The notes under the pieces were generated by a model that saw only the letters and a list, made by a program, of their open reading frames with translations, had not been told where the DNA came from and searched no databases. The translations under genes were made by a program, and so were the position numbers. 42,302 nucleotides of DNA from a virus. The stretch lies in IMG/VR virus record IMGVR_UViG_3300006201_000047. One strand, written 5' to 3'. Below, piece by piece: positions 747 to 38,099 of this stretch (positions are counted from its first letter, which is position 1; every line of letters starts with the position of its first letter).

Positions 747-1199
747 ATGGATAGTTTACGCATTGATAATGGTCTGAAAAAGATTGAGGTGAATGACGCA
801 GGGGAATGCATAGAATTTTCTGTTTTGGACAATGGCTTTTTCAGGGGATTTTCAGAATTGATGCAATGGTTTGATGGGAAAAACACCCAGGGAAACATTA
901 AGGACATAGAGGAGCAGGCCGGGAAAGTTGTTTCTGACAATGGGGATGGAATCAACCATGAAGCACTTAGCAATGTCCTTGATATCCGGGATAAGGTAAG
1001 TAAAGAGGCCTGTGAAAAGATTGATAATATTTTCGGTGTCGGGGCATCGAAAAAGATTTTCGGAAGTATCATTCCAGATATGTATTCAATTGCGGAGTTT
1101 TTTGAAAAGATTGCTCCGTTTATTGAGAAGTATGCAAAAGAGCGAAATCAGACTATTAACAGGAAGTATAGCAAGGGCAGGAAGGGTTCTAAAAGCTGA
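747..1199 (+). CDS. Tail assembly chaperone-like protein (150 aa)
   Basis: Acidic 150-aa ORF with RBS AGGAGGG, between the tail tube gene and the Gp15-like gene. The call is positional. Confidence 0.5.
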   Translation: MDSLRIDNGLKKIEVNDAGECIEFSVLDNGFFRGFSELMQWFDGKNTQGNIKDIEEQAGKVVSDNGDGINHEALSNVLDIRDKVSKEACEKIDNIFGVGASKKIFGSIIPDMYSIAEFFEKIAPFIEKYAKERNQTINRKYSKGRKGSKS

Positions 1200-1789
1200 T
1201 GTTCAATATCATGCTTGACAGACTTCCAACAGAATACAAAGGTTATCCCATCAACAGCGATTTCCGCATAGGAGTACAGATGTTTCAGGCTTTAAGTGAC
1301 AATGGATTAACTGACATGGAAAAGATGTCTATATCCTGTGCGCTGTTGTTTGATGTGGAGGGCGCCGAGGAATACCCCGACATGACGACCATGCAGGAGG
1401 GCATACAGTGGTTTTTATCTGACTGGTATACGGACAACCCTGTCAAGGGCAAGGAAGAACAGAAAAAGGATATGGACTATGATGTAGACCAGTGGCGCAT
1501 CTTCTCTGCCTTTTTGGCACAATTTGGGATAAATTTGAATACTGTTGATATGCACTTTTGGGTGTTTATGGGGCTTTTGTCCACACTGGAAGAATGCGCT
1601 TTTACTAGAATTGTGGATATCCGCACAAAGAAGATTGACCCGAAGTTGAAGCCGTCCGACAAAACAGAACTTAAAAAGGTCAAAGAACGTTATGCACTTG
1701 AGAGCGTAGAAGATTTCCAAATGTCTCCGCAGGAGCAGGCGGAATATGACGCGTTTATGAAATATGTGAAGAAAGGAAAGGAGCAGTGA
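1199..1789 (+). CDS. Phage Gp15-like tail assembly protein (196 aa)
   Basis: N-terminus MLDRLPTEYKGYPINSDFRIGVQMFQ resembles the Listeria A118 Gp15 family (PF06854), from memory. The ATG overlaps the upstream TGA. Confidence 0.6.
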   Translation: MFNIMLDRLPTEYKGYPINSDFRIGVQMFQALSDNGLTDMEKMSISCALLFDVEGAEEYPDMTTMQEGIQWFLSDWYTDNPVKGKEEQKKDMDYDVDQWRIFSAFLAQFGINLNTVDMHFWVFMGLLSTLEECAFTRIVDIRTKKIDPKLKPSDKTELKKVKERYALESVEDFQMSPQEQAEYDAFMKYVKKGKEQ

Positions 1790-2841
1790 AAGATAAAAAA
1801 ATAGGAATATATACCATGCAATGTGGAACGCAGTGCGTTGGATGCGATTACCCAATACATTTTGATACATATACAGGATGCTCTTTTGCCTGCTCATATT
1901 GCTTCGCAAACGAAAAGCCGAATAAAAACATTGTTGCACCTACAAACGGAGGAATTAACGCTTTGCGTCTATTTATCAGTGGCAAACGGACAAGTGAAAC
2001 GAGGTTCTGCGACTGGAGTATACCCATACACTGGGGTTCGACGAGCGACCCATTCCAACCGATAGAAAAGACGGAGTGCAAAACCCTTGAATGTCTGAAA
2101 TTGCTTGCAGAAACAAAATATCCGTTTATCATCAGCACAAAAGGAACGCTGATAGCAGAAGAACCTTATGTAAACCTTATTTCGAGATGCGAGTGTGTCG
2201 TGCAGATTTCCGTCGCTTGTAAGGAATATGACTCATTAGAAAGCGGCGCGCCAAAGTTTGAAGAGCGCGTAAAAACGGTTGAAAAGTTAAACAGTAAGGC
2301 TAAAAGGGTAATCATAAGGATTCAGCCATATTTCCCGGTGTACTTTTCTGAAATCAAAGAAAATCTCAAGGTTTTTTCGGATGCAGGAGCATACGGAATT
2401 ATAATAGAGGGATTCTCCACGAGAAGAAAGAAGAAATGTACAGACGGAATGGAATGGAACGGTAGCAGGTATCAGTATTCGGTTGAGATTCTTTCAGAAC
2501 ATTTCAAAGAAATAAAGAAAGAAGCGCATAAGTGCGGACTTAAATTCTTTTGCGGCGAAACAAGACTGCAATTTCTTGGAGATGATTTGACCTGTTGCGG
2601 GACGTTAGGACTTAGTAATTTTGTTCCAAATAAATACAATTTGCCACATATGGCCTATGACAAGAATTATCCTGCGCCAACAAAAGCAATGAAGCGTCCG
2701 GGAACTGCAAGGCCATTCCGAAGTGTCAATCAGAGCACAGAATGGTATAACAAAATAAAAGACGCGAGTTTTGAAGAAATGATGAACGATAACAAAGAAT
2801 ATGTAGACTGGCTCAGAGATTTAAAGGAGGTGTATGGATAA
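1786..2841 (+). CDS. Radical-SAM superfamily protein (351 aa), SPL/COG1533-like context
   Basis: CX3CX2C motif CSFACSYC in ...DTYTGCSFACSYCFAN, with an extra Cys pair (CGTQCVGC) upstream. GTG start overlaps the Gp15 stop, and AGGAG lies 6 nt upstream. Confidence 0.75.
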   Translation: MKDKKIGIYTMQCGTQCVGCDYPIHFDTYTGCSFACSYCFANEKPNKNIVAPTNGGINALRLFISGKRTSETRFCDWSIPIHWGSTSDPFQPIEKTECKTLECLKLLAETKYPFIISTKGTLIAEEPYVNLISRCECVVQISVACKEYDSLESGAPKFEERVKTVEKLNSKAKRVIIRIQPYFPVYFSEIKENLKVFSDAGAYGIIIEGFSTRRKKKCTDGMEWNGSRYQYSVEILSEHFKEIKKEAHKCGLKFFCGETRLQFLGDDLTCCGTLGLSNFVPNKYNLPHMAYDKNYPAPTKAMKRPGTARPFRSVNQSTEWYNKIKDASFEEMMNDNKEYVDWLRDLKEVYG

Positions 2842-3308
2842 TGTGTACGAATATGGGTGGAAAAGGGAAGACGGGGGGGACAAAAAGAACTTCTCAGAAG
2901 CCGAGTAAGCCATCATATTTTAAAGAATCAGAAAAAGCTGTTCAGTTGCAGGCTAATTTTCAACGGAGAGATACAGGAAAAGAATATTCTAAAATGGTGT
3001 GGGTTCCAAAATCCCAGCTTACAGATGATGGAAGACCATCAAGATGGATTGAGGGACAGAAACAGGACCAGGAAGGTTCTTATGTAATGTCCTGGCAGGA
3101 TTCAAAGGGAAAGAAATTTGGTTCTGGCATGACCCAAAGAGAAAAAGAATATGCACAGAACAGGCAGAAAAGATTTGAGTCGGGTGCAAAATCTTATAAT
3201 GATTTGCTTGCAAAGGCAAAATCAATGGGAGTTAAGGGAGTCCGGGTTGGAATGAAGAGAAAAACCATTCTGAAAAAAATAGAAGAATTTGAAAAGAAAA
3301 AGAAATGA
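2841..3308 (+). CDS. Lys/Arg-rich basic protein of unknown function (155 aa)
   Basis: By my count 38 of 155 residues are K or R, and the C-terminus is EKKKK. ATG overlaps the upstream TAA, and AGGAGG lies 10 nt upstream. Confidence 0.65.
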   Translation: MCTNMGGKGKTGGTKRTSQKPSKPSYFKESEKAVQLQANFQRRDTGKEYSKMVWVPKSQLTDDGRPSRWIEGQKQDQEGSYVMSWQDSKGKKFGSGMTQREKEYAQNRQKRFESGAKSYNDLLAKAKSMGVKGVRVGMKRKTILKKIEEFEKKKK

Positions 3309-3368
3309 TTGTTTACCGACACGTAAATGGAGCGTGCCGCTAACCTGAAAAAGCTACGGGCAGGGAAT

Positions 3369-3403
3369 AAAGACATCTCTGCTATGTGGAGGTGTCTTTT
3401 TAT
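3369..3403 (+). terminator. 11-bp stem-loop plus T-tract, terminator-like, that sequesters the tape-measure RBS
   Basis: AAAGACATCTC (3369-3379) pairs with GAGGTGTCTTT (3389-3399), including one G-U pair, around a 9-nt loop, followed by TTAT. GGAGG at 3388-3392 lies in the 3' arm. Confidence 0.6.
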
Positions 3404-6400
3404 ATGGCAGGATATGACGGAAGTATAAGAATAAACACGCAATTAAATACGAAAGATTTTGAAAAGGGCTCAAAGAGTCTTATTTCCGGAATAAAAAGCA
3501 TTGGAAACAGCCTCAGAGGGATTATAGGTTCTCTTGGATTTGGTCTCGGAATAGCAGGATTGGTTGCGCTTGGAAAACAGGCTATTGATACAGCCAGCGA
3601 TATCCAGGAAGTGCAAAATGTCGTTGATACAGCCTTTGGCAGCATGTCTTATAAGATGGAGGAGTTTGCTCAAAATTCTGTAAAACAATTTGGCATCTCT
3701 CAATTATCTGCAAAACAATTAGGCTCTACTTTTATGGCTATGGGGGCCTCTATGCTTGATAATATGGAAAAGTCCAGCGACATGGCAATAAATTTGACGG
3801 CGCGTGCGGCTGATATGGCTAGTTTCTATAACAAAAGTATAGAAGAGACCTCTTTTGCCTTAAAGTCTATATATACCGGAGAAACAGAATCTTTAAAAGA
3901 ATATGGCGTTGTAATGACTCAGGTTAATCTCCAGGAGTTCGCAAGGCAGCAGGGGATTAACAAGAGCATCCAAGCCATGACACAGGCAGAAAAAGTGGAG
4001 CTGCAATATGCTTATGTCATGCAGCAGACTGCACTTGCGGCCGGGGATTTTGCAAAGACTTCCGATAGCTGGGCAAATCAGACAAGAATACTGTCGGAGC
4101 AGTTCAAAGAATTGCTATCTATCTTGGGTTCTGGGCTTATCACCGTCCTCACACCTGTCATTAAATTTCTGAATACAGTGCTTACTATGCTTATAGCGAT
4201 TGCGAAACAAATCGGAGCCGTTTTGTCGAGTTTGTTTGGCATAAAAATCCCAACAGCAGATTCCGGCAAGTTTGCATCGGATTTATCCGCAGCGGCAGGA
4301 GGGGCGGACGACCTGGCAAATGGAATGGATGCAGCTGGAAAGTCGGCAGAGAAAGCCGGGAAAGCCGCAAGCAAAGCCCTTGCCCCATTCGATAGGCTGA
4401 ATGTTCTGAGCAAGGATTCAGGCGGGGGAGGGGGTTCTGGCTCAGGAGCCGGTGGAGGTGCTGGCGGCGGTGGATTTGAAATGCCGGAACTTTCTTTCAA
4501 GGAAGACACGGCGGGCGCAGCTGCGCTCGGCGGCGCGCTTGACGGAATCCTGGATAGGCTTAAGCAGCTGAAAGATTTATTTGTCAAGGGATTCTTTGAG
4601 GGGCTTGGGGACTATAAGCCAGTACTTGAAGAATTGAAAAAAGACATCTTATCAATAGGGAAGACTTTGAAAGAAATTTTTACCGACCCGGAAGTTGTCG
4701 CCGCGGCAAACAGATTCGCAGAACAGTTAGCGTATTCCCTGGGGCAGGTCGTAGGCTCCATTGCAAGCATTGGGCTTACGATAGCGCAAAATCTTGTGGG
4801 CGGCATGGAAAAATACCTCACGCAAAACAAAGAAAGAATCAAACAATATATTGTTTCCATGCTTGATATTGGAACAGAAATAGCAGCAATAATCGGAAAT
4901 TTTTCTGTTGCTCTGGCAGACATCTTTTCGGTATTTGGCAGCGATACGGCGCAGCAGATTACTGGAAATTTAATTGGTATATTTGTAGAAGTAGGTATGC
5001 TGATTTCTGAAAATGCTGCAAAACTTGGTCGGGATATCTTAAATATGATTGCCCAGCCAATTATTGACAACAAGGATAAAATCAAAGATGCAATAGAGGG
5101 AACTTTGAAGGCTATTGAACCTTTTACAAGTGGGCTTTTGTCAATCGTACAAAACATAAGGGGCGCAGTTTCGAAAGTGTACGATGAGCATTTGAAACCT
5201 TTGTTTGATTCTGTTACGAATGGACTTTCAAAAATTGTAGGCAAGTTACTGGATGGATATAACAAATACATAGTTCCAGTATTTCAAGGACTTGGAGATA
5301 AATTCAAAGAAATCATGGAAGGTCCGTTTGGTGATACGATTGGAAAGGTTGCAGAATTTATCGGGAAGTTGGTAGATGCAGTAAAACTCCTTTGGGAAAA
5401 CGTATTAATTCCATTTTTTTCTTGGGCCGCAGAAAACATTATGCCCGTTCTTGCCCCGATTGTTAATTTTATCGGAGAAACTGTACTGATAGTTCTTGAA
5501 AAAATTATAAAAATAATCGGAAATATTTCTGGTGCACTTAGCGGGATTATAGACTTTGTTGTTTGTGTTTTTACTGGAGACTGGGAAAAGGCGTGGAACG
5601 GGATAAAAAAATATTTTTCAGAAACATGGGACTCTATAAAAAATCTCCTTTCTACAACATGGGAAATTATCGGTAGCCTTATTAAAAATGGAGTTGAATT
5701 AGTAAAATCAGTGATAATAGCAGCATGGGAACGTATTAAGACAACTACTTCTATAGTTTGGAATGCAATAAAAGGCATTCTATCTACAGTTCTCGGTGCA
5801 ATGAAAGCACTTGTTGCCACTGTATTTAATGTAATAAAAACTACAATAACGACGGTATGGAACGGGATAAAATCCGTTACTTCCATAGTATGGAATGGGA
5901 TAAAATCTTCGTTGACTGTAATTTGGAATATATTAAAAACCTTAGTTTCTACAGTATTTAATGCAATAAAAAAATCAATTATAAACGCATGGAATAATGT
6001 GAAAGTCGTAACTTCAACAGTTTGGAATGCAATAAAAACTACAACTTCAAATATATGGAATGGAATCAAGAAAACAGTAACAGGTATTTGGAATGAGCTC
6101 AAGAGCTCTGTATCTACAGTATTTAATGGAATAAAAGACACAATCACAAATGTCTGGGATTCAGTAAAAACTGCTACCTCCACAATATGGGAAGGAATTA
6201 AGAACGCAATAAAGGCGCCAATTAACGCGATTATTGGTTTTATAAACGGAATGATAAGAGGTGTCATAAATGGAATAAACGGGGTGATAGGTGTGTTAAA
6301 CGGCCTTAATTTTAAAATCCCTGATTGGATTCCTGAGTTTGGAGGAAAAAGTTTTGGTTTTAATATTCCAAAAAAGACAGCACCGCAGATTCCATATCTT

Positions 6401-6658
6401 GCGTCTGGTGCGGTAATCCGTGGCGGAGACCCTTTTATGGCAGTACTTGGAGACCAGCCACGCGGACAAACGAACATAGAAACTCCACTTCCAACAATGA
6501 TAAAAGCATTTAAACAGGCCATGGAAGAAATGGGTGGTCCAGGTGGCGGAGAATATACTTTCATCGCACAGATTGACGGAAAAACAATTTTTAATGAAAC
6601 AGTAAAACAAGACCGCATGTATAGAAAGACTACCGGCCGTAGCGGATTCGCATATTAG
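3404..6658 (+). CDS. Tail tape measure protein (~1084 aa; alternative GTG start at 3386)
   Basis: Largest ORF in the window, downstream of the chaperones. It has helical and TM-like segments, a Gly-rich linker (SGGGGGSGSGAGGGAGGGG) and 11-residue aromatic repeats. Confidence 0.9.
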   Translation: MAGYDGSIRINTQLNTKDFEKGSKSLISGIKSIGNSLRGIIGSLGFGLGIAGLVALGKQAIDTASDIQEVQNVVDTAFGSMSYKMEEFAQNSVKQFGISQLSAKQLGSTFMAMGASMLDNMEKSSDMAINLTARAADMASFYNKSIEETSFALKSIYTGETESLKEYGVVMTQVNLQEFARQQGINKSIQAMTQAEKVELQYAYVMQQTALAAGDFAKTSDSWANQTRILSEQFKELLSILGSGLITVLTPVIKFLNTVLTMLIAIAKQIGAVLSSLFGIKIPTADSGKFASDLSAAAGGADDLANGMDAAGKSAEKAGKAASKALAPFDRLNVLSKDSGGGGGSGSGAGGGAGGGGFEMPELSFKEDTAGAAALGGALDGILDRLKQLKDLFVKGFFEGLGDYKPVLEELKKDILSIGKTLKEIFTDPEVVAAANRFAEQLAYSLGQVVGSIASIGLTIAQNLVGGMEKYLTQNKERIKQYIVSMLDIGTEIAAIIGNFSVALADIFSVFGSDTAQQITGNLIGIFVEVGMLISENAAKLGRDILNMIAQPIIDNKDKIKDAIEGTLKAIEPFTSGLLSIVQNIRGAVSKVYDEHLKPLFDSVTNGLSKIVGKLLDGYNKYIVPVFQGLGDKFKEIMEGPFGDTIGKVAEFIGKLVDAVKLLWENVLIPFFSWAAENIMPVLAPIVNFIGETVLIVLEKIIKIIGNISGALSGIIDFVVCVFTGDWEKAWNGIKKYFSETWDSIKNLLSTTWEIIGSLIKNGVELVKSVIIAAWERIKTTTSIVWNAIKGILSTVLGAMKALVATVFNVIKTTITTVWNGIKSVTSIVWNGIKSSLTVIWNILKTLVSTVFNAIKKSIINAWNNVKVVTSTVWNAIKTTTSNIWNGIKKTVTGIWNELKSSVSTVFNGIKDTITNVWDSVKTATSTIWEGIKNAIKAPINAIIGFINGMIRGVINGINGVIGVLNGLNFKIPDWIPEFGGKSFGFNIPKKTAPQIPYLASGAVIRGGDPFMAVLGDQPRGQTNIETPLPTMIKAFKQAMEEMGGPGGGEYTFIAQIDGKTIFNETVKQDRMYRKTTGRSGFAY
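5580..6215 (+). repeat. Tandem 33-nt (11-aa) repeats inside the tape measure gene
   Basis: About 19 consecutive units of the form (V/I)W(N/D/E)xIKxxxxx, for example VWNAIKGILST, VWNGIKSVTSI, IWNGIKKTVTG. Confidence 0.85.
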
Positions 6659-7093: not shown

Positions 7094-9382
7094 ATGATTG
7101 ATTATAAATATAAAGATTTGTTTTTAGATAACAGTATACCAAAACAGGTGACAATCTCATTTGATAATGTGGTTTTAACCAATGAGGATTTATATAATCA
7201 AGAAATGACGCTGGAAGAAAATCTTTGTTCCGAAGAGGAGCTTCGTTTTGGCTCCTGCGAATCAAGTATACTCAGTTTTAAGATATCTGATGTATTCTCT
7301 CCAATGGCTGGAAAATGGCTAGATGTCAAAATGACGATAGATAAAAATACAGATTCTCCTTTTTTAATCGGAAAATACAAAGTGAACTCGGACAAACTTT
7401 CTGGAGACAAGAGTTACCGGGAGATAGTAGCATACGATGCCATGTATGACATCATAAATTCAAGTGCAATAAAATGGTATAACACTATATTGCCACACAA
7501 AGACAGCAAAGTCACAATGAAGCAATTCCGCACAAGTTTCATACATCACTTCGGCTTAGAACAAGAAGAAGTAGAGCTTATAAATGATGGAATGATAATA
7601 AAAAAAACAATCCAGGTTGAAGAAGATATTGAAACAGATCAGGTGAGTGTTTTAAATGAATCCGCACTTAGCGGCCTTGATGTGATAAAAGCGATATGCG
7701 AAATAAACGGATGTTTTGGACATATTGGCCGAGATGGAAAATTTCATTATATTTACCTCAAGCAGAATATTCAAGGATTATATCCAGCTAATAATTTATT
7801 CCCGGACCACGCACCAGATTATCTTCCCCAGACCAAAACAGGACATTTATATCCACAGGACCCAAAATCAAACCGTATTGGAAAATCTTATTACATAGAA
7901 TGTATTTATGAAGATTTTGCCACGAAATCAATTGATAAACTACAAATAAGGCAAGAGGAGAATGATATAGGACAGGTATGGCCGGAAGTAGGACTTCGCC
8001 CAGAAGATAACTGTTATATTATTGAAAATAACTTCTTAGTGTATGGGAAGTCCGCGGCGGAGCTTCGAATTGTTGCAAAAAATATTTATGATAAAATTCA
8101 CGAAATTTCATACAGGCCATTTGAGTGTGATGTGATTGGAAACCCTTGTTTGGAAGTCGGGGACCCTATAAGGATTTTAACAAGACATGATGTTGTAGAA
8201 AGTTATGTATTGCAGAGAACATTGAAAGGCACGCAGGCTCTTCGTGATAGTTTTAAATCTGATGGAGTAGAAAAATATTCAAAAAAAGTAAACGGAATGC
8301 AAAATTCCATTATTCAATTAAAAGGAAAAACAAATATCCTGGAAAGAAACGTCGACGAAACGAGACTTGAAATGAGGGATATGGGAGAGGAGCTGTCCAC
8401 GGAGATTTCCGTTACTGCCGCCGGGATAAACGAGACGATAAAAAATACCAAAGAAGGCCTGGAAACAAAAATTTCCAAAACGGTAAGAAGCATAGAAATG
8501 TCCGTATCGAATAATAAAACTGGAAAAACAGCGGAGGTGAAGTTGTTAATCACTGACGAAGGAGGGACCCAGTATGAGGTTACTGCAGATAAGATAGATT
8601 TAACCGGCCTGGTTTCTTTTACAAATCTTGAGACTGGAGGACAGACAATCATAAACGGAAACAACATCACTACTGGGCAGATAAATTGTGATTTATTAAA
8701 CGGGGGAAAAATACTGGGACAAACAATAGAAGGAGGGCGCATAAACGGAACTATTATTAAAGCGAAAGACGGTATTTATCTGCAGTACATAAATCCAATC
8801 GAAAGACCGCCGGGAGGATATGAATTTGCTTTTGCAGAAGTTGAAGCTGTCAGCAGTGGAATTAACGGTTCTGTAATAAACATAAACGCTCCTTCTGGGG
8901 AGACGTGCATAAGCCTTGGGTATGGAGGAATTCCTGCACCTAACATGGTTTTTTATCCTGTAAGTTTCCCGAAAGGGGCAATGATAAATGGAGCAGTTAT
9001 AAGTGAAGCATTGATACACAGCGTAAGTAAAGAAAGTGCATCAGCGAATTTTTTTTATTCTAGTGATATACCAGGAGATGTTGCAGAAGCGACATTTAAT
9101 CTTAAAACTTCCGGAGTTTTTAACACAATATATGGAAAATATTATACAAACAAGCATTTAGCTGGCGAATCAAAAGTACTTACAGCACTTTTTGATGGAG
9201 AAAATCCAAATTTTTTTCCAAAATATCAAAGAGTTAAAGGTGTTTCCTATGTTGGAAAAAGAACATTCGTTTTTGTTTTTGATGTGGAAGGAAAACTTAT
9301 CGTAAGAAATGCGAGTTCTTCTGATTTAATATCAGAAGAAAGAACAGAAATAGAATACAGGATTGACTATTTTAATTTATGA
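7094..9382 (+). CDS. Tail-associated (Tal-position) minor structural protein (762 aa)
   Basis: Second gene after the tape measure. It has a central coiled-coil segment (KGKTNILERNVDETRLEMRDMGEELS). The call rests on position and architecture. Confidence 0.6.
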   Translation: MIDYKYKDLFLDNSIPKQVTISFDNVVLTNEDLYNQEMTLEENLCSEEELRFGSCESSILSFKISDVFSPMAGKWLDVKMTIDKNTDSPFLIGKYKVNSDKLSGDKSYREIVAYDAMYDIINSSAIKWYNTILPHKDSKVTMKQFRTSFIHHFGLEQEEVELINDGMIIKKTIQVEEDIETDQVSVLNESALSGLDVIKAICEINGCFGHIGRDGKFHYIYLKQNIQGLYPANNLFPDHAPDYLPQTKTGHLYPQDPKSNRIGKSYYIECIYEDFATKSIDKLQIRQEENDIGQVWPEVGLRPEDNCYIIENNFLVYGKSAAELRIVAKNIYDKIHEISYRPFECDVIGNPCLEVGDPIRILTRHDVVESYVLQRTLKGTQALRDSFKSDGVEKYSKKVNGMQNSIIQLKGKTNILERNVDETRLEMRDMGEELSTEISVTAAGINETIKNTKEGLETKISKTVRSIEMSVSNNKTGKTAEVKLLITDEGGTQYEVTADKIDLTGLVSFTNLETGGQTIINGNNITTGQINCDLLNGGKILGQTIEGGRINGTIIKAKDGIYLQYINPIERPPGGYEFAFAEVEAVSSGINGSVININAPSGETCISLGYGGIPAPNMVFYPVSFPKGAMINGAVISEALIHSVSKESASANFFYSSDIPGDVAEATFNLKTSGVFNTIYGKYYTNKHLAGESKVLTALFDGENPNFFPKYQRVKGVSYVGKRTFVFVFDVEGKLIVRNASSSDLISEERTEIEYRIDYFNL

Positions 9383-9398
9383 TATATGAGGTGAGTAT

Positions 9399-11945
9399 AT
9401 GAATAAGTGTTATTACCGAATTGTCTGGGAGAACTACCCAAGTGACAGAACGCCGCTAAATGAGCAAAATTTGAATAAAATCGACGTGGCAACGGATGAG
9501 ATGGACAACCGTATTATCTCTTTAGATTCCACAAAGTTTGATAAGTCAGAAGCGCAGATGCTTGTCAAGTACATAGAGTATGATGAGGAAACAGGAATTT
9601 TCAAAATCACACATTATAACGGAGCAAGTTACACCATTGATACGCTACTTGAAAAACTGGCCGTTAATTTCGATTATGACTACCAGACACAGCGTCTTAT
9701 TATCATGCTTTCAGATGGCGAGATAAAATATGTTGATTTGTCGGCCCTCATTACACAATATGAATTTTTGGACAGCGAAACCGTGCATTTTACCATAAGC
9801 GGAGATGGAAAGGTAAAGGCAGAGGTAAAAGAAGGGAGCATACAGGAAAGGCACCTGCGGCCGGAATACTTGGCGGATATACGGGTGGAGTCCGCCAAGG
9901 CGGAAGCCAGCGCAGTGGCGGCCGATACAAGCGAGAAAGCAGCAAAAGTGAGCGAAACTGCAGCCAAAGAATCTGAGATAAATGCTGCTAGCTCCGCTAC
10001 GGAATCAGCAAACAAAGCAACGGAGGCGGCAGTATCTGCAACTACAGCAACTCAAAAGTCAGAAGAGGCGGCAATATCAGCACAAGAAGCAGCGGACAGC
10101 GCGAAAGAATCAGCGGAATCAGAGGCGAGTTCCTTAGCTTCAGCAGAAACAGCTGGGCAACATGCTGCCGCCGCTTCCACTGAGGCGGAAAAAGCGGCTG
10201 GAAGCGCAATAGCTTCTACCGTAAAAGCAGAAGAATCAGCGGAATCTGCCAGATTATCCCAAAGTTATGCCATTGGAACTGGTGGAGAAGTTCGGGAGAA
10301 TGACGATACGGATTGCGCAGAATACTATTATGAACAGGCAAAAAGAGTAATCCAAGGTGTCAGTGGAATTGTTCCGATGGGAACGATAACCTTTGAGGGA
10401 CTCTCCGATACCGAACATCAGAAAACAGGATATATGTTTAATATATCAGATTCTTTTGTTTCCGATGAGCGCTTTTCTGATGGCGGAGGAATATTTTACG
10501 GCGCTGGAAACAATGTTCTTTACACAGCAGAGGGAAAGTGGGATGTTCTGGCTGGCGCAATGGTTTCTGGAGTAAAAGGAGCCGAAGAGACGGAATACAG
10601 ACAAGGATTCGTAAATATAACAGCCATGGATATCGGGGCAATTGCAAAGCACAAAAAAACTATCTTATTAAACGATGACATATATGACACAAATACTTAT
10701 TATCCTGTAACAGGTACGAGAATGCGTAACAACGAAATTAATCAAATGGAAGTTATGACAACGCTTGGAAGAAGCGGTACGCCACCATGGTCGACGCATG
10801 CAGAAGGTTTCTTCTTTCATTTAGCAATAGAAGAAGTAGGTAGCGGCTGGGGAGCAAATAACGGTAATAGATTGATTTTAGCAAACAATTCTATGTGGAC
10901 AGATAAAAATTGCGGTTGGTATAGACAATTAAACTCGATATCTATGCCTGTTTTCTTCTTGAGAGGCGGAGGAATTTATTATGTTACTACAGATTATGAA
11001 TGTGATTGGACAATTCATGCCTCCACATATGAACCAAATGAATACGAGAGCGTTTCTCCAACAACAACACTAGAAACGACGGATTGGGGAGCGAATCTCG
11101 GAACTGATATAAGGGGAAATTCCTCTTCGTCTGGAAGGGCAAGATATTTGCAATCAATACAAAACGACGGTACGCCATATGAAAATTTCTATTTATTACA
11201 GAGTAGATTTGTTGGAAACGATGATTTTAAATTAGAGATTTCAAATAACAGTAATGTTGACAGCACAAAATACAATGTTTGCGTTGATTATTCGCAAAAT
11301 GCAAATTCTGCGAACAGTGCTGGGAGTGCCACTACTGCCGGAAGCGCGGCTATTTCTTCCAAGCTAGGAAGAGACGGCAATATAAATAATCCAATGACGT
11401 TTCTTTGGCGTGGACAGAGCGGACAGCCTACATGGCTGTGGGGCAGTAATGATGGTAGTAATAATTATGTGTATAATCCATCCAATTTTAGCGTGAATTA
11501 TGCTGCAAGTGCGAACGTTGCTAATTCTGCAACCAGAGCCGTACAAGACCAGCATGGCAATAATATTTCCGACGCTTATTTGAGAAAATCAGATGCTGGT
11601 ATAGTTTATGCAACAAGCCAGAATAATATATCTTTATCAAGTGGTTCATGGAATAATAGTTTTTGTGGTTTAACGATACCTGCAGGAGTATATGTTGGAA
11701 CTTTTCAATTTCATTTCAATGCCTTTGGAAGTGGAAGCACAACCGGAAAAAGAATGGTTCGATTTGCAGGTACTCCTTTTGGAGGCATAAATAATGCTCC
11801 TGCAACCGGCTCTGCGCAGCATTTAACATCTTCTGCTGTATTTAGCCTTTCGTCAACAACCACGATTCATGGCGGTGCGTATCAAAATAGTGGATCAACA
11901 GCCACAGGATGCAGTTGTGTGATATATGTTGTAAAGATTAAATAA
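9399..11945 (+). CDS. Tail fibre / receptor-binding protein (848 aa)
   Basis: BppU-like N-terminus (RTPLNEQNLNKID), a long Ala/Ser/Glu-rich helical stalk (~9891-10269) and SANSA-type fibre motifs near the C-terminus. It is the last tail gene before the lysis cassette. Confidence 0.65.
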   Translation: MNKCYYRIVWENYPSDRTPLNEQNLNKIDVATDEMDNRIISLDSTKFDKSEAQMLVKYIEYDEETGIFKITHYNGASYTIDTLLEKLAVNFDYDYQTQRLIIMLSDGEIKYVDLSALITQYEFLDSETVHFTISGDGKVKAEVKEGSIQERHLRPEYLADIRVESAKAEASAVAADTSEKAAKVSETAAKESEINAASSATESANKATEAAVSATTATQKSEEAAISAQEAADSAKESAESEASSLASAETAGQHAAAASTEAEKAAGSAIASTVKAEESAESARLSQSYAIGTGGEVRENDDTDCAEYYYEQAKRVIQGVSGIVPMGTITFEGLSDTEHQKTGYMFNISDSFVSDERFSDGGGIFYGAGNNVLYTAEGKWDVLAGAMVSGVKGAEETEYRQGFVNITAMDIGAIAKHKKTILLNDDIYDTNTYYPVTGTRMRNNEINQMEVMTTLGRSGTPPWSTHAEGFFFHLAIEEVGSGWGANNGNRLILANNSMWTDKNCGWYRQLNSISMPVFFLRGGGIYYVTTDYECDWTIHASTYEPNEYESVSPTTTLETTDWGANLGTDIRGNSSSSGRARYLQSIQNDGTPYENFYLLQSRFVGNDDFKLEISNNSNVDSTKYNVCVDYSQNANSANSAGSATTAGSAAISSKLGRDGNINNPMTFLWRGQSGQPTWLWGSNDGSNNYVYNPSNFSVNYAASANVANSATRAVQDQHGNNISDAYLRKSDAGIVYATSQNNISLSSGSWNNSFCGLTIPAGVYVGTFQFHFNAFGSGSTTGKRMVRFAGTPFGGINNAPATGSAQHLTSSAVFSLSSTTTIHGGAYQNSGSTATGCSCVIYVVKIK

Positions 11946-25438: not shown

Positions 25439-27064
25439 ATGGAAAAACTAACGCCAAAGCAAAAGGCATTTGCAGACAATTATATAAAAAATGGTGGAAA
25501 TGCCGAAAAAGCGGCGTTAGACGCAGGGTATTCAAAAAATTACGCAAAAGCACAATCATATAAAATGTTGGACAATGTCGGAATTTCCACCTATATAGCG
25601 GAAAAACAGAAAGAAATCGAAAAACAGAACGGTTACGACATTATGACCTTGACCGAGATTCAGGAGCGGCGTTCAAGAATCGGTAAAGGATTGGAAGTGG
25701 ATTCTTTCGGATTCGCCGCCGACTTTTCCAGTCAGTTAAAGGCAATGAGCGACCTTGAAAAGATTTTGCTTATTAAACAGGAGCAGGAAGAAAAGCAGAG
25801 AGCGGCAGAAGAAGCGTTGCGAAATAAGACTTATCACATGGACTTGGACAATATCCCGGACGCTTTTCACGCCGCTATCCGTGCGATAAGGAACCGTGTG
25901 TATCTGGAATACATATTCAAGGGCGGGCGTGGTTCTACGAAGTCCTCCACTGTCGGAATGGTGATTGTGGAGCTCCTCAAAAATCACCATGACATACACG
26001 CTCTTGTCTGCCGTAAGGTTGCGAACACTATCAAGGATTCTGTCTATAACAAGATTAAGTGGGCGATAGGAAAGCAGGAATTTGACGAGGAATTTACTTC
26101 CACAAAATCACCATATGAAATCACGCTGAAAGCCACGGGGCAGAAGATATATTTCAGAGGTGCAGACGACCCGGACAAGATTAAATCTATCAACCCGGAG
26201 TTTGGCTATATCGGTATCCTGTGGTACGAGGAATTAGACCAGTTCGCCGGAGATTCCGAAGTACGAAAAATAGAACAGTCTGCTATCCGTGGCGGCGAGT
26301 TGGCGTGGATATTCAAATCATTTAACCCGCCAAAGACCGCCAACAACTGGGCGAATGAGTATGTGCAGGAGGTTGGAGAAAATACTCTTGTCCACAGCTC
26401 CACATACAAAGACGTGCCTAAAGAGTGGCTAGGGCAACCATTTATTGATAAGGCGGAGCATTTGAAAGAAATCAATCCAGAAGCCTACGAGCATGAGTAC
26501 GGCGGCGTGGCGAATGGTAACGGCGGTATGGTGTTTGAATATCTTGAATTTCGGACGATTACGGACGAAGAAATCAGCCACATGGACAAAATTTTTCAGG
26601 GGGCTGACTGGGGATATTTCCCTGACCCTTACGCATTTATCAGAGCTTATTACAATGCTTCAAAGGAAACAATCTATCTGATTGATGAAAACTATGTCAA
26701 TAAGCAGCAGAACGCAGTAACGGCGCAATGGATAAAGGATAAAGGCTATACAGATTATGCTGTCACTTGCGACAGTGCAGAACCTAAATCCGTGGTGGAT
26801 TATCGGGACATGGGGATATCTGCAAGGGGAGCAATAAAAGGTCCCGGTTCCGTTGAATATGGTATGAAGTGGTTGCAGAGTAGACATATTGTTATTGATA
26901 TGAAAAGGACGCCGAACGCCGGAAAAGAGTTAAAAGAATATGAGTATGAAAGGGATAAGGACGGAGAAGTTATTTCCGGCTATCCTGACGCAAATAATCA
27001 CGCAATAGACGCTTTGCGGTATGCGTTTGAGCAATTCTATAACAGGAGAGGAAATCACGCATAA
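25439..27064 (+). CDS. Terminase: small-subunit (Terminase_2-like) N-terminal domain fused to a PBSX-type large subunit (541 aa)
   Basis: The N-terminus KLTPKQKAFADNYIKNGGNAEKAALDAGYSKNYAKAQSYKML is the TerS HTH signature. Walker A KGGRGSTKS begins the TerL ATPase, and the C-terminal part is nuclease-like. Confidence 0.85.
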   Translation: MEKLTPKQKAFADNYIKNGGNAEKAALDAGYSKNYAKAQSYKMLDNVGISTYIAEKQKEIEKQNGYDIMTLTEIQERRSRIGKGLEVDSFGFAADFSSQLKAMSDLEKILLIKQEQEEKQRAAEEALRNKTYHMDLDNIPDAFHAAIRAIRNRVYLEYIFKGGRGSTKSSTVGMVIVELLKNHHDIHALVCRKVANTIKDSVYNKIKWAIGKQEFDEEFTSTKSPYEITLKATGQKIYFRGADDPDKIKSINPEFGYIGILWYEELDQFAGDSEVRKIEQSAIRGGELAWIFKSFNPPKTANNWANEYVQEVGENTLVHSSTYKDVPKEWLGQPFIDKAEHLKEINPEAYEHEYGGVANGNGGMVFEYLEFRTITDEEISHMDKIFQGADWGYFPDPYAFIRAYYNASKETIYLIDENYVNKQQNAVTAQWIKDKGYTDYAVTCDSAEPKSVVDYRDMGISARGAIKGPGSVEYGMKWLQSRHIVIDMKRTPNAGKELKEYEYERDKDGEVISGYPDANNHAIDALRYAFEQFYNRRGNHA

Positions 27065-29615: not shown

Positions 29616-30884
29616 ATGTTGCCGCCGGAATACTTCGACCACAAAGAGGATAGATTGCTTGAACTCTACCGACAACTCGAAAACTTTATCCTCAAAGACA
29701 TCACCCGACGCCTACTCTCCGCTGGGGAAATGACCGCAACCGCCGACCGCCTTATCTGGAAATTGCAGCAGATGGGCGAGAGCCAGGCGGCGATTGAGCA
29801 GAAATTGCAGAAGTTGACGGGTCTGACACGAAAAGAACTTCGCTTCCTCCTGCAAGATGCCGTTCTGACTTCGTGGGAGGACGATAGAGCAACTTTAGGA
29901 CAGTTAGGCATAGAATTATCGAACCCACTTGAAAATGCCGCTGTAATCCGTATTATGGACGCTGAATATAAAAAGAGCTTAAGTGAATTAACGAACCTCA
30001 CACGAACGACCATGAATCAGTCGCAGATTGACCTTATAAATATGCTTGATGAAGCTGATTTGAAGGTTTCTTCTGGTGCACAAAGCTATTCAGAGGCGGT
30101 ATGTGATATTCTGGATAGGTATGCTGTCCGAGGGATATATGTGGATTATCCGAGTGGTGCACGCCGGACACTGGAAGCGGCGGTTAGATTGTGCGTTGTC
30201 ACATCAATGAACCAGACAGCAGCACAGGTCACGAATCAGTACATAGTTGAGGGCGGAATTGAGTATGTCCTTGTATCGGCGCATCTGGGGGCGAGAGTGG
30301 CGCAGAAAGGACAGCCAGCTCTTGCTTCTCATGCAGACTGGCAAGGCAAGGTGTATAAAATCCGAGGGACCACATCAGAATACCCGAATTTACTGGAACG
30401 GACAGGCTATGATGTGGACCCGAACACCGGGCAAGGGACCGTTAAAAATCCGCTTGGATTACACGGATACAACTGCCGGCACTCACACAAGCCTTGGGAT
30501 AAGCTCCTACGCAATCCCTATGTGGACGAAAAAGGCAATCTGAAAATAGACAGCGAGGAAAACAAAAAGCGGTATGAACTCCAACAGAAACAGCGTGCAA
30601 TGGAGCGGAGTCTGCGGGCATGGAAACGAAAGCTGATTGTGAAAGAGCAGGAAATATCCGGCGTGGCAGAAACGGACGTTAAGGAGATATTGCAGAGGGA
30701 TTATGACCGCATGGCGTACCAGCTCACACAGAAAAACAAGGCGTACAACGATTTCTGCAAACAGAACGACTTGCAGCCGCAGTATGACCGCATAAAGGTA
30801 GCTGATTTCGGCAGGGAGCAGACAAAGCGGAGTAATGCTGGGGCAAGGAGATATAAGAAAGAAAAGGAGAAGGAAGAATCATGA
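29616..30884 (+). CDS. Head morphogenesis / minor capsid protein (SPP1 gp7, Phage_Mu_F / minor-capsid-2 type, 422 aa)
   Basis: The MLPPEYFDHKEDRLLELYRQLENFILKDITRRL N-terminus and the GYNCRHSHKPW motif are typical of this family. It sits in the portal-proximal position. Confidence 0.75.
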   Translation: MLPPEYFDHKEDRLLELYRQLENFILKDITRRLLSAGEMTATADRLIWKLQQMGESQAAIEQKLQKLTGLTRKELRFLLQDAVLTSWEDDRATLGQLGIELSNPLENAAVIRIMDAEYKKSLSELTNLTRTTMNQSQIDLINMLDEADLKVSSGAQSYSEAVCDILDRYAVRGIYVDYPSGARRTLEAAVRLCVVTSMNQTAAQVTNQYIVEGGIEYVLVSAHLGARVAQKGQPALASHADWQGKVYKIRGTTSEYPNLLERTGYDVDPNTGQGTVKNPLGLHGYNCRHSHKPWDKLLRNPYVDEKGNLKIDSEENKKRYELQQKQRAMERSLRAWKRKLIVKEQEISGVAETDVKEILQRDYDRMAYQLTQKNKAYNDFCKQNDLQPQYDRIKVADFGREQTKRSNAGARRYKKEKEKEES

Positions 30885-31039
30885 TGGACGTTAAAGACGC
30901 ACATAAGGTAACTGATAATTTGTGGAAAAGACCATTTATATGCCACGAGAATTACATTGAGCTGGACAATGGATATGTGATTGCGAAGAAAGAGTATTTT
31001 AATGAGTTACAGAGAAAGGCAGAGAAAACCTCTGAATAA
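30881..31039 (+). CDS. Small ORF (52 aa)
   Basis: Hand translation: MMDVKDAHKVTDNLWKRPFICHENYIELDNGYVIAKKEYFNELQRKAEKTSE. Its ATG overlaps the upstream TGA. Confidence 0.45.
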   Translation: MMDVKDAHKVTDNLWKRPFICHENYIELDNGYVIAKKEYFNELQRKAEKTSE

Positions 31040-31073
31040 TTGGTACAACCCCCGCACGAATCTGTTGTAAAAT
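31040..31073 (+). promoter_or_regulatory. Copy of the phage-specific promoter motif (TTGGTACAAC-N17-gTAAAAT), head of the cargo island
   Basis: Matches the other copies. It is followed by the leader ATTGTGGTAGGAGGTAGGGA. Confidence 0.6.
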
Positions 31074-31093
31074 TGTGGTAGGAGGTAGGGAAG

Positions 31094-31411
31094 ATGAGTA
31101 TAATAAGCGAACAGGTAAGAGAACTGCGTTATAAAGCTGATATTTACAACGCTGTCGGGAGCGCATGGGAATTAAACCGTGCGGAGGCAAAGATATTACA
31201 GAGATTGCTTAGAAAAGCCGCTGACACCATAGAGGCATTATCCAAAAAGTTGGCGACAAACGGCGGCTGGATTCCATGCAGTGAGCCGCCAAAGCATGAC
31301 AAAGAAGTTTTGATATTCAACGGGAAATCATACTCTGTGGGATATTATGATGGGAAAACATGGGTAAATGCAATACACCCCGTGGAATGGCAGGAGATAC
31401 AGCATGAATAA
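31094..31411 (+). CDS. Coiled-coil plus DUF551-like protein (105 aa)
   Basis: The C-terminus reads NGGWIPCSEPPKHDKEVLIFNGK...DGKTW. Confidence 0.5.
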   Translation: MSIISEQVRELRYKADIYNAVGSAWELNRAEAKILQRLLRKAADTIEALSKKLATNGGWIPCSEPPKHDKEVLIFNGKSYSVGYYDGKTWVNAIHPVEWQEIQHE

Positions 31412-31775
31412 TAGATGGGTAGAATATAACAGCAATCCTTTAAAAAGACGTGTCGGCGACTGCGCCATTCGTGCGTGCTGCAAGGCTACAAACCGCACAT
31501 GGAATGAAGTCTTTGACGACCTTGTGCAGATTGCGTACCGTCAAAAGGATGTTTTGTCAGCAAATAAAGTATGGGGTGAATACCTGGCAGATAACGGCTA
31601 TGTTCGCTATGAGCCGGATTACCCTATGGACGTTTACAAATTTTGCTGCAACTTTCCGCATGGTACATACGTTCTTGGGCTTGACGGTCATGTAGTGACG
31701 GTGGTGGACGGGCGGTTCTATGATACTTGGGATTCGTCCGGGAAGAGTGTGATTTATTTTTGGGAGAGGGGATAG
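31404..31775 (+). CDS. Putative papain-like Cys/His enzyme (123 aa)
   Basis: NPLKRRVGDCAIRACCKA (a GDC nucleophile-like motif) and later LDGHVVTVVDGRFYDTWDS (a GH motif). This is inferred from a motif pattern seen in phage proteins. Confidence 0.4.
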   Translation: MNNRWVEYNSNPLKRRVGDCAIRACCKATNRTWNEVFDDLVQIAYRQKDVLSANKVWGEYLADNGYVRYEPDYPMDVYKFCCNFPHGTYVLGLDGHVVTVVDGRFYDTWDSSGKSVIYFWERG

Positions 31776-31778
31776 GCA

Positions 31779-32102
31779 TTGACAAGGAAAGAAGCTATAG
31801 GAGAATTTCAAGTACAGATAAGCACTCTTGAAAGCATGATTGCGTATAATAATGACTTTGAACCCAAAAGTGATAATTCAAGGCTGATAGAGAGAATGGA
31901 AGCGGCGAAAGTGGCTATATCTGCATTGGAAGAATTGGAACGCTGGCACACCGACCGTATCAATGAGAAAATCAAGAATCCGTTTGCATGGACTTCTACC
32001 TCTATTTGCCACAACTGCGACCATAAAGACGAATACATAGAGGAATTGGAAACAGAGATTCAAGAGTTGAAACAGAAATATGAGATTGCAACCACTCCCT
32101 AA
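31779..32102 (+). CDS. Hypothetical coiled-coil protein (107 aa, TTG start)
   Basis: An ORF with a CHNCDH motif and a C-terminal coiled coil. Confidence 0.5.
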   Translation: MTRKEAIGEFQVQISTLESMIAYNNDFEPKSDNSRLIERMEAAKVAISALEELERWHTDRINEKIKNPFAWTSTSICHNCDHKDEYIEELETEIQELKQKYEIATTP

Positions 32103-32142
32103 AATTGCTATAATGAGGGAAATACAGAGCGGAGGTTTGGGA

Positions 32143-32292
32143 ATGGAAATGCCAGTAATAATAGGCTCATTGGTGATACTTGGTGAAATATCAATTTTGG
32201 CTTTTATGCTGATGAAAGAGTGGTTTCTTCCGTTTGTCGGTCAATGTGTTTGTGATTTTTGTGGAAAGGTTAAGGGAAGATATGGAAAATAG
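32143..32292 (+). CDS. Small membrane protein (49 aa)
   Basis: MEMPVIIGSLVILGEISILAFMLM is TM-like, followed by a CVCDFC motif. Confidence 0.45.
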   Translation: MEMPVIIGSLVILGEISILAFMLMKEWFLPFVGQCVCDFCGKVKGRYGK

Positions 32293-32548
32293 GGATAATG
32301 TGAAGGAAAAAGAAAACGGCGCAACCGATGTATTGGGCGCACTGGTTAAGCAGCTTAAAACAATGTGGATAGTGATTGTTCTTTTAATTATTCTGCTTGT
32401 CGGAACAAATATGGCTTGGTTGTATGTGTTCCAGTCCTATGACTATGTATCACAGGACGGCGAGGGATATAATTATTACAACAAAGAGATTGAAGGTGAT
32501 GTGCATAATGGGACAGAAGATAAGAAGCAAGAAGAAGGGCAGAACTAG
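32282..32548 (+). CDS. Single-pass membrane protein (88 aa)
   Basis: TM helix MWIVIVLLIILLVGTNMAWLYVF followed by an acidic, Tyr-rich tail. Confidence 0.5.
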   Translation: MENRDNVKEKENGATDVLGALVKQLKTMWIVIVLLIILLVGTNMAWLYVFQSYDYVSQDGEGYNYYNKEIEGDVHNGTEDKKQEEGQN

Positions 32549-32580
32549 GGGAACTAAGAAGAAAAGAAAGTAGCGGTGGC

Positions 32581-32853
32581 ATGAGGAAGAAAAAAGAAAA
32601 GGAAGTTGAAGGATTTGTCAAATGGGAGTTGGAACTTTTTAAAAATGAGTGCAATTTCACGCCGGACGAATCCATGTTCTTTGATTTGAGGAATGAGGGC
32701 GATGGAATGAGTTTTGAAGAAATCGCCGGTCAAATGGGATATTGCATGACTAAAATCAATAAACTTTCTGAATCCGTCACCAAAAAGATTATAAAGGTAT
32801 TGCCGCTTAAAGAGGCATTTTTCAAGAAATACCGCGATAAATACGGAGAATAA
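32581..32853 (+). CDS. Sigma-70 region-4-like HTH protein (90 aa)
   Basis: MSFEEIAGQMGYCMTKINKLSESVTKKIIKVL matches the LSyeEIAe.lg.s..tVk.rl.ra.kkl pattern. Confidence 0.55.
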   Translation: MRKKKEKEVEGFVKWELELFKNECNFTPDESMFFDLRNEGDGMSFEEIAGQMGYCMTKINKLSESVTKKIIKVLPLKEAFFKKYRDKYGE

Positions 32854-32954
32854 TTGAATAAAAAACGCAACAAAAACGAGGGTTTTCCGAGTATGGGAAA
32901 CTCTCTATTTTTATGCAAAAATTTACCCATAGAAAGAAATCGGAGGGCATTCAG

Positions 32955-34626: not shown

Positions 34627-34645
34627 GCGATTAACTGGACATTGA

Positions 34646-37316: not shown

Positions 37317-37340
37317 ATAAAATTTGTGGAGGGAATTTGC

Positions 37341-38099
37341 ATGAACAAAACAAAGATTGACTGGTGTGATTCAACATGGAATCCGGTTACTGGGTGTAAT
37401 CATGGGTGTGAATACTGCTATGCAAGAGGTATAGCGCACAGATTCGGATTTCACGCAAGCGAACCGGATATTAACGAAAGAGTATTACTTGAATGTCCGG
37501 TAAGCGCAGGAAAGAAAGTTCCATATCCATTTGACTTTCATCCGACATTCCATAAATACCGCTTGAATGATTATATCGGAAAACAAGGAAGGAACATTTT
37601 TGTCTGCTCTATGGCTGATTTGTTCGGGAAGTGGGTGCCAGACAGTTGGATTGAGGAAGTGTTTAGGTCTTGCGAAAAAGCACCACATCACAATTATTTG
37701 TTTCTGACAAAGAATCAGCAAAGATATATTGAACTGTCAGAAAAAGGATTGTTGCCAAATAAACATTGGTATGGTTACTCTGTAACAAAGCAATCTGATT
37801 TATGGGAATTTCATCATGCAGACGATTGTGCAGTGAAAAATCTGTTTGTTAGCATAGAACCTATACTAGAACCAATAAGCCCCGGATTTTGTTCGCATTG
37901 TCCGGCTGATTGGGTAATAATCGGAGCTGAAACTGGACGGAGAAAAGACAAGGTTGTTCCAAAGCGAGAATGGGTTGAAAGAATTGTGATGGAATGTGAA
38001 TATTCCGATATTCCGGTATTTATGAAATCAAGCCTTGCAGATATATGGGGCGAACCACTCATACAGGAATTTCCAAAAGAATTAATGAAAATTAAATAG
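37341..38099 (+). CDS. Phage Gp37/Gp68 family (DUF5131) protein with a CX3CX2C motif (252 aa)
   Basis: MNKTKIDWCDSTWNPVTGCNHGCEYCYARG is the characteristic N-terminus of PF07505. Confidence 0.75.
   Translation: MNKTKIDWCDSTWNPVTGCNHGCEYCYARGIAHRFGFHASEPDINERVLLECPVSAGKKVPYPFDFHPTFHKYRLNDYIGKQGRNIFVCSMADLFGKWVPDSWIEEVFRSCEKAPHHNYLFLTKNQQRYIELSEKGLLPNKHWYGYSVTKQSDLWEFHHADDCAVKNLFVSIEPILEPISPGFCSHCPADWVIIGAETGRRKDKVVPKREWVERIVMECEYSDIPVFMKSSLADIWGEPLIQEFPKELMKIK

Follow-up and report, generated by a model that had tools for sequence, protein, structure and literature searches.

The window analysed here is a 42.3-kb temperate siphovirus genome recovered as a JGI/IMG metagenome contig (IMG/VR record IMGVR_UViG_3300006201_000047; 42,302 nt in full), in which a gene for a 351-aa protein bearing a radical S-adenosylmethionine (radical-SAM, rSAM) motif and a gene for a strongly basic 155-aa protein intervene between the gene for a Gp15-type tail assembly chaperone and the tape-measure gene. 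Following up an earlier note on this DNA, made from its letters alone, we found that the block that holds the two genes, 1786–3399, is a mobile accessory cassette (moron) in a hypervariable slot and not part of the tail machinery. Sequence profiles and a predicted structure identify the 351-aa protein as a putative, divergent rSAM enzyme of the branch that contains spore photoproduct lyase (SPL), COG1533 proteins and gp53 of phage M6, outside every curated family. The role that we favour for it, to which we give roughly an even chance, is late-expressed radical chemistry directed at DNA, with DNA modification as its preferred form.

Both extra open reading frames (ORFs) lie on the plus strand where the earlier note had placed them, the rSAM ORF at 1786..2841 with a GTG start and the basic-protein ORF at 2841..3308. 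They are preceded by the chaperone gene (Phage_Gp15; 1199..1789, plus strand; PF06854, 1e-25), the left edge of the cargo slot, and followed by the tape-measure gene (3404..6658, plus strand), its right edge. In three relatives the start of the tape-measure gene lines up with the ATG at 3404. The overlaps of each start with the upstream stop are present as GTGA at 1786–1789 and TAATG at 2839–2843. Because these start codons overlap the preceding stops and no promoter or terminator of its own was found upstream of the block, the block is read with the late tail operon. In most distant homologues the rSAM gene starts at the equivalent of M11 (ATG 1816); the start at 1786 is nevertheless probably real, since the 10-residue extension K-K-x-[GA]-[IV]-Y-T is kept as protein within the window's clade with start codons of its own (ATG in loci L014 and L001, TTG in L013), and the residue corresponding to M11 is Leu in L101.

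Relatives found through the Gp15 protein showed four states of the Gp15/tape-measure junction. In L096, whose Gp15, DUF6673 and Dit proteins are 89%, 96% and 90% identical to those of the window (79–96% across the major tail protein, DUF6673, Gp15 and Dit), both genes are missing, and the 300 nt that separate the Gp15 gene from the tape-measure gene contain just a 45-aa ORF. L099 has a junction of 2.5 kb, in which one gene is lipoprotein-like and another anti-repressor-like. L093 and L094 (Gp15 91% identical) carry a DUF4417-like gene, a label that is a reading of the sequence for which NCBIfam gave no confirmation, as well as a gene for a 169-aa 'MMGGRGG...' protein, among other cargo. The two genes of the window recur in the Eubacterium sp. 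14-2 prophage (L013/L097/L100; C805_00085/86, 86% identical). In DNA alignments with L096, L097 and L093, similarity ended exactly at the Gp15 stop codon. On the other side of the slot, DNA similarity resumed at the Shine–Dalgarno sequence and ATG of the tape-measure gene. Alignment of relatives thus confirmed that the block, put earlier at 1.5 kb, is an indel, of about 1.6 kb. Its G+C content (0.39–0.41) is the same as that of its flanks, so that it bears no sign of recent foreign origin. As a separate observation, the slot of L093 (2114–8624) accommodates at least 6 kb of other cargo, read from the sequence as the DUF4417-like gene, the MMGGRGG protein, two anti-repressor-like genes, a DUF4352-like lipoprotein and a restriction-endonuclease-like gene; no tape-measure homologue was found within the 7 kb examined there.

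The strong hairpin that had been described at the end of the block was recovered at 3369..3399 on the plus strand, with a 14-bp stem (dG -16.9 kcal/mol, z = -4.7) followed by the U-run UUUUUAUAU, and 0 of 200 shuffled sequences were equally stable. A simple terminator scan missed it, and the statement of its stability rests on the folding results. Together with the intergenic stretch 3309..3368 (plus strand), which is shared with the block-bearing L097 and lacking in block-less relatives, it forms the 3′ end of the block. The hairpin is conserved in L097 and absent from L096 and L099, and belongs to the block. Because its 3′ arm buries the GGAGG Shine–Dalgarno sequence of the tape-measure gene (ATG 3404), insertion of the cassette may alter tape-measure translation or give partial termination.

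The CSFACSYC motif of the 351-aa protein occupies residues 32–39, in the context TYTGCSFACSYCFA, and the upstream cysteines that had been remarked on are C13, C17 and C20, out of 17 Cys in total. In an alignment of 47 homologues, C32, C36, Y38 and C39 of the cluster motif C32-X3-C36-X-Y38-C39 were invariant, as were C20, C270 and C271; C13, C75, C135 and C145 were conserved at 90% or more. The same alignment revealed conservation of a GGE-like block, HWG..SDPFQP.E, and of polar residues at predicted strand ends. Only the phage family has the C-terminal half, in which a D266/CCG270-272 motif is invariant. Against the radical-SAM profile PF04055, for which the gathering threshold is 29.5 bits, the window's protein scored 16.9 bits (E 0.007) and full-length family members scored 34.6, 39.4 and 32.5 bits, all above threshold; many homologues carry a precomputed PF04055 match. 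The protein also matched phrog_13321 (3e-13).

An AlphaFold2 (AF2) model of the 351-aa protein (pLDDT 94.2, pTM 0.92) gave 44 matches in the PDB at E<1e-3, of which the top 35 were rSAM enzymes; the model thus has the partial or full TIM-barrel fold of that superfamily. SPL held the six best ranks (E 8e-9, or about 1e-8; TM-score 0.54; 293–296 aligned columns at 14% identity), with SkfB, anSME and SuiB among the second tier, and the annotated BFVD fold matches were mostly rSAM or iron–sulfur (Fe-S) enzymes. By sequence, neither the single protein (phmmer) nor a 47-sequence profile found anything meaningful in the PDB, the profile having no match at E<=1, and no SPASM or twitch domain was detected with Pfam or NCBIfam. 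Profiles, predicted structure and fold search together place the family in the radical-SAM superfamily, and the assignment first made from the motif was not refuted. The family is large: we counted 199 word-indexed homologues and, among 1.84 billion representatives, 304 clusters (50% identity) at E<1e-30 and 1320 at E<1e-10. The enzyme gene is under purifying selection, with a ratio of nonsynonymous to synonymous substitution (dN/dS) of 0.08–0.13. In the GenBank phage collection the region had no DNA relative beyond short tape-measure matches, and tblastn with the enzyme returned one unannotated match.

DNA is a known substrate of only two rSAM enzymes, SPL and M6 gp53 (PMC8989533). For the SPL-like gp53, isomerisation of N-alpha-glycinylthymine in DNA has been demonstrated (Lee et al., NAR 2021/22, PMC8989533), and its gene adjoins that of gp52, a pyridoxal-phosphate (PLP)-dependent decarboxylase, in the thymidine hypermodification pathway of this Pseudomonas phage (PMC8989533). 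Profile comparison of the window's family with gp53 gave an hhalign probability of 95.7% (E 9e-9), and a sister subfamily of 400–470 aa acts as a bridge, being related to the window's family at E 1e-77 and to gp53 at 98.7% and E 3e-16 by hhalign and down to 6e-11 by phmmer; these E-values are pairwise or small-database values, and indicate homology, not orthology. M6 gp53 is the closest characterised sequence relative of the enzyme, at remote yet significant homology. The two are phage-encoded members of the same rSAM branch, and gp53 is likewise annotated 'DNA repair photolyase'. They differ in length (480 versus 351 aa), their identity over the core is only about 22%, and M6 is a virulent Pseudomonas phage whereas the family described here belongs to temperate phages of anaerobes. 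A gp52-like PLP gene adjoins the rSAM gene in about 31% of family loci; the window has none.

The resemblance to COG1533 and SPL-like enzymes, suggested in the earlier note, was borne out: the best NCBIfam matches were PA0069 (6.5e-13) and Rv2578c (3.3e-12). These are cellular, COG1533-type families of unknown function to which the enzyme does not belong, as it scored 48.4 bits against a cutoff of 360 for PA0069 (NF033668) and 46.1 against 430 for Rv2578c (NF038135), and only the rSAM core, residues 26–210, aligns. SPL itself (SplB; PDB 4fhc and others) has the same CX3CX-aromatic-C motif near the N-terminus of the barrel and is a DNA-acting rSAM enzyme of anaerobic Firmicutes; the family described in this work differs in being carried by phages and in having ParB as its partner. 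Neither phmmer nor the family profile found SPL in the PDB at E<=1–10, and there was no SPL model among the NCBIfam matches of the enzyme at E<=1. In the RadicalSAM.org classification, SPL, MJ0683-like and DUF5131 proteins make up megacluster 5 (PMC9477430).

The enzyme family is restricted to phages and prophages (323 IMG/VR contigs and 73 GTDB species, mostly anaerobes), and its anaerobic hosts are mostly Clostridia, with Collinsella, Eggerthella, Bacteroidota, Elusimicrobia and Victivallis as others. Gene neighbours within 1.5 kb were counted over 80 IMG/VR loci and 73 species-dereplicated GTDB loci, 153 in all. A ParB_N-like (ParB/Srx-fold) gene stands near the rSAM gene in 77 of the 80 and 66 of the 73 (143/153), and a PALP-family gene in 38 and 10, respectively (48/153). 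The ParB partner retains the NPR and GHQR motifs for binding nucleoside triphosphates (NTPs), a capacity reported for ParB/Srx folds (10.1101/2025.10.10.680097). The PALP partner falls in the ACC-deaminase/D-cysteine-desulfhydrase family and is a full-length homologue of M6 gp52 (25% identity, residues 10–275 against 6–277). The modal gene order is a late-regulator-like helix-turn-helix gene, ParB (often two copies), rSAM, sometimes PALP, then terS, terL and portal, so that most family members adjoin the terminase and not the tail module; at a minority of loci the rSAM gene stands between portal and head-morphogenesis genes, accompanied by DUF4417 and a gene for an ART-PolyVal protein. In a neighbour-joining tree the ParB association recurs in nearly every clade, and only the window's clade (the window, L013, L014 and L101), which is sister to a ParB-bearing clade, has lost it. 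As read from gene context, these data show a ParB/Srx-fold NTP-binding protein to be the ancestral gene partner of the enzyme family; the window's clade appears to have lost it and moved into the tail operon.

The literature describes ParB domains fused to methyltransferases (MTases) and to DUF4417 in prophages, and DndB as ParB-like. The DndB–DndC pair and the phage ParB–MTase and ParB–DUF4417 fusions likewise join a ParB fold to a DNA-directed enzyme, but here that enzyme is an rSAM protein. In the literature searched, on DUF5131, on COG1533 and on ParB together with radical SAM, we found no description of a ParB–rSAM pairing and no functional study of the enzyme family, whose closest copies bear the annotation 'hypothetical protein'. 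Three apparent ParB–rSAM and rSAM–PALP fusions (P0275, P0218 and P0235) were set aside and not used as evidence: they join partial domains and are probably fragmentary gene calls, although genuine fusions would directly attest a functional link. One locus, L075, has two rSAM paralogues, at 7499–8356 and 8905–9891 (285 and 340 aa), with one ParB_N-like gene between them.

The 155-aa protein does contain 38 K/R residues, as counted earlier (K28 and R10; isoelectric point 10.1), and among window proteins of 80 aa or more none is more basic. It begins with the motif M-C-T-N-M-G-G-K-G (N-terminal peptide MCTNMGGKGK..., MCTNMGGKGKTGG) and has the conserved motifs YFKESEKAVQL, VWVPKSQL..DGRPS.WI and AK.MGVKGVRVGMKRKTI. 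Only 26 homologues were detectable, with these motifs strongly conserved among them, and a dN/dS of 0.15 indicates purifying selection. No Pfam, PHROG or NCBIfam family was found for it; its AF2 model has pLDDT 80, with three strands plus helices. Its homologues outside the window's clade follow DUF4417 and not rSAM, so it is not an obligate partner of the enzyme.

Small proteins encoded directly after rSAM genes have in common the N-terminus x-C-x-[NS]-x-G-G-[KRG]-G, with the remainder unrelated, and those directly after DUF4417 begin MGGRG[GS]SSG. One such Gly-rich-N-terminus protein bears an ART-PolyVal domain, and up to three of them occur in series. The N-terminal-motif proteins lie at 2841–2870 in the window, L001 9062, L003 9024 and 6340, L009 7001–8383, L014 7899, L018 3297 and L093 3100, and also in L021–L024, L107 and L108. 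They look like interchangeable, effector-like cassettes with a common N-terminal handle.

The earlier note had offered DNA repair or modification of injected DNA, an anti-defence function, or modification of a virion protein as candidate roles for the enzyme. Homology and gene neighbourhood narrow this range in favour of DNA-directed chemistry; they do not decide between the candidates. We favour chemistry on DNA because the family is homologous to both DNA-acting rSAM enzymes, has ParB and PLP neighbours and usually stands on the terminase side; phage DNA-modification genes are commonly found directly upstream of terS/terL. Purifying selection on the genes adds to this case, as do the anaerobic hosts, in which, from established enzymology, O2-dependent base hydroxylation of the TET/JBP type should be unavailable. 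In the mechanism that we propose, a predicted [4Fe-4S] cluster on C32, C36 and C39 would reductively cleave SAM, and the resulting 5′-deoxyadenosyl radical would abstract a hydrogen from a substrate in DNA, most likely at a pyrimidine C5-methyl-type position or on an adduct borne by one. The target would be phage DNA fresh from replication, while it is being packaged or just before, and the product a modified base that guards the DNA against host nucleases. The ParB-like protein present in most relatives would bring the enzyme onto DNA or activate it there, with the PLP enzyme trimming an adduct derived from an amino acid; where ParB has been lost, as in the window's clade, the likeliest DNA-contacting helper would be the basic 155-aa protein.

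A fuller form of DNA modification can be put forward only tentatively, and we think it less likely than not as a whole: that the family is the catalytic core of a so far undescribed system by which phages of anaerobes modify DNA bases without oxygen, aided by a ParB/Srx-fold NTPase and streamlined in the window's clade. An SPL/gp53-like enzyme might activate a pyrimidine methyl-type position directly, taking the place of TET/JBP or of the dUMP-hydroxymethylase and kinase steps that aerobic pathways use; a gp52-like PLP enzyme, present in a third of cases, would tailor an amino-acid adduct. In the streamlined clade, ParB would have been replaced by the interchangeable small proteins with Cys/Gly-rich N-termini, perhaps carried in the virion.

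Several results weigh against a DNA-directed role. The window itself has no ParB_N, PALP or DUF4417 gene by profile hidden Markov model search and hhalign, so the argument from partners is borrowed from relatives that are 45–50% identical. The likeness to SPL is at the level of the fold only. M6 gp51 (the aGPT-Pplase amino acid:DNA transferase), gp54 (the 5-hmdU kinase) and gp55 had no phmmer match at E<=1e-3 in an ORF set from 172 loci, a set that excluded the window's own ORFs; Pfam and PHROG scans of about 37 window ORFs likewise gave no kinase or transferase family of this kind. We therefore rejected membership in the M6 pathway: homologues of its kinase and transferase were not found, and the M6 route itself is missing. 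Nor was a gene for a dUMP hydroxymethylase noticed in the inspected neighbourhoods, where no targeted search was made. For the presumed helper, the AF2 model of the 155-aa protein had no fold match in the PDB at E<0.2, and there is but a weak hint of a SAP/Rho_N-like C-terminus, with 2 of 27 members matching at E 0.05. In the larger clade of the window, moreover, the rSAM gene is always followed by one for a Cys/Gly-rich-N-terminus protein, a pattern that also fits a protein substrate.

The second-best version of a DNA-directed mechanism is light-independent repair, which we regard as unlikely. An SPL-like lyase would reverse thymine–thymine (spore-photoproduct-type) or other radical-reversible lesions that arise in dense, dehydrated virion DNA, doing so in the dark, anoxic gut without photolyase action. 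It would agree with SPL being the best solved-structure match, with COG1533-type 'DNA repair photolyase' families being the best NCBIfam matches, with the anaerobic hosts and with the occurrence of the enzyme alone, lacking adduct-building partners, in the window's clade. The timing fits poorly: incoming DNA would need the enzyme early, but the gene lies in late operons (terminase or structural) unless the protein is packaged, and an O2-labile Fe-S enzyme would be a poor virion passenger. SPL similarity is also wanting at the sequence level, as described above, and the PLP-enzyme partner would have no role in reversing a lesion.

Modification of a protein or peptide is a further, quite unlikely alternative, in which the enzyme would act on the Cys/Gly-rich N-terminus of the downstream protein, or on a virion protein, by thioether formation, epimerisation or another radical reaction, and the small proteins would be effectors, maybe packaged and injected. 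The motif at the start of every downstream gene product in the window's clade, one of which has the ART-PolyVal effector domain, speaks for it, as do the additional conserved cysteines (C13, C20, C75, C135, C145 and C270/271) that could hold an auxiliary cluster, the presence of the peptide-acting SkfB, anSME and SuiB in the second tier of fold matches and the siting of the genes inside structural modules. Fold matches to peptide maturases are of a kind common to the whole superfamily, however, and neither of the domains searched for above, SPASM and twitch, was detected. Other clades have no such downstream protein, a PLP enzyme or terS coming next, and the Gly-rich N-terminus is not specific to rSAM loci, because it is also found, without Cys, after the unrelated DUF4417 gene.

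Lower again, and distinctly improbable, we place a small-molecule or anti-defence role apart from DNA chemistry, such as making or destroying a nucleotide-type signal, or consuming SAM to starve restriction or BREX systems. The slot is shared with conflict-type cargo (a putative restriction-endonuclease-like ORF and anti-repressor-like, ART-PolyVal and Tad2-like genes), ParB/Srx folds bind NTPs, and the PLP partner family includes ACC deaminase, the substrate of which is derived from SAM. Against this, neither the rSAM protein nor the basic protein matched a defence or anti-defence family in PHROG (PADLOC was not searched), the fold and sequence neighbours of known function both act on DNA, and uncoupled SAM cleavage by rSAM enzymes is slow. 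Finally, that the two genes are ordinary, conserved tail-assembly components, parts of the chaperone/tape-measure set, is suggested by their position in the tail operon and their translational coupling, but the enzymatic fold, the absence of both genes from L096 with its 79–96% identical tail proteins, the unrelated cargo in the same slot of L093, L094 and L099 and the homologues that adjoin terminase or portal in other phages effectively exclude a structural tail role, in agreement with the earlier impression that the enzyme had no obvious one.

The enzyme class, and the idea that phage rSAM enzymes act on DNA, were already known; the ParB-paired phage family, its orphan variant in a tail operon and the cassette proteins with the N-terminal motif are new. 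The findings add to the SPL/gp53 branch a family that is common in gut prophages, with bacterial hosts across several phyla. If DNA is what the enzyme modifies, the family would represent a new enzyme class for DNA chemistry, show how phages of strict anaerobes make hypermodified bases without oxygen-dependent enzymes, and bear on restriction evasion, the host range of gut phages and artefacts in gut-virome sequencing. The Gp15/tape-measure cargo slot, with a hairpin over the ribosome-binding site, bears on how an essential operon tolerates morons.

A second CX3CX2C protein had been pointed out at 37341–38099 in the same genome. It is a DUF5131 protein (PF07505, 8e-44; TIGR04471, 2e-32), encoded by a second radical-SAM-related gene at 37326..38099 on the plus strand. 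This gene belongs to a separate cargo island within the head module, and is at most a candidate functional partner of the gene at 1786. DUF5131 was found in 17 of the 80 IMG/VR and 6 of the 73 GTDB family loci (23/153, 15%), and upstream of rSAM in the window-clade relatives L001 and L013. The two window proteins recall the 'Radical SAM mobile pair', which is likewise carried on a mobile element, the DUF5131 protein resembling member A (TIGR04471, 2e-32) and the 1786 protein member B (TIGR04470, 8e-5). We rejected membership in that pair, as the scores were 112.6 against 355 bits for TIGR04471 and 22.1 against 410 for TIGR04470, and the idea also fails on the low co-occurrence (15% of loci) and on position: the window genes (1786 and 37326) are non-adjacent, at opposite ends and in separate cargo islands. 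The corresponding genes are about 3–7 kb apart in L013 and L001.

The second island spans 30881–38507, about 7.6 kb, between the head-morphogenesis gene (Phage_min_cap2, 29616–30884) and a scaffold gene (38532), and comprises about 17 small ORFs, the DUF5131 rSAM-like gene included, nearly all without a Pfam family; one of them, for a 198-aa protein without a Pfam match, matches phrog_757 ('DNA methyltransferase'). Immediately upstream of the scaffold gene, at 38451–38515, is an Rfam GP20-b cis-regulatory motif (41.6 bits), preceded at 38367–38447 by a tRNA-like element to which ARAGORN assigned no anticodon. Upstream of the chaperone gene, the tail region begins with a major-tail-protein-like gene (213–737) and a DUF6673 gene (747–1199). 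Elsewhere in the window, a 541-aa ORF at 25439–27064 combines a small-terminase domain, Terminase_2 (residues 4–127, 69 bits), with the ATPase and nuclease domains of a large terminase, Terminase_3 and Terminase_3C, and is an apparent TerS–TerL fusion.

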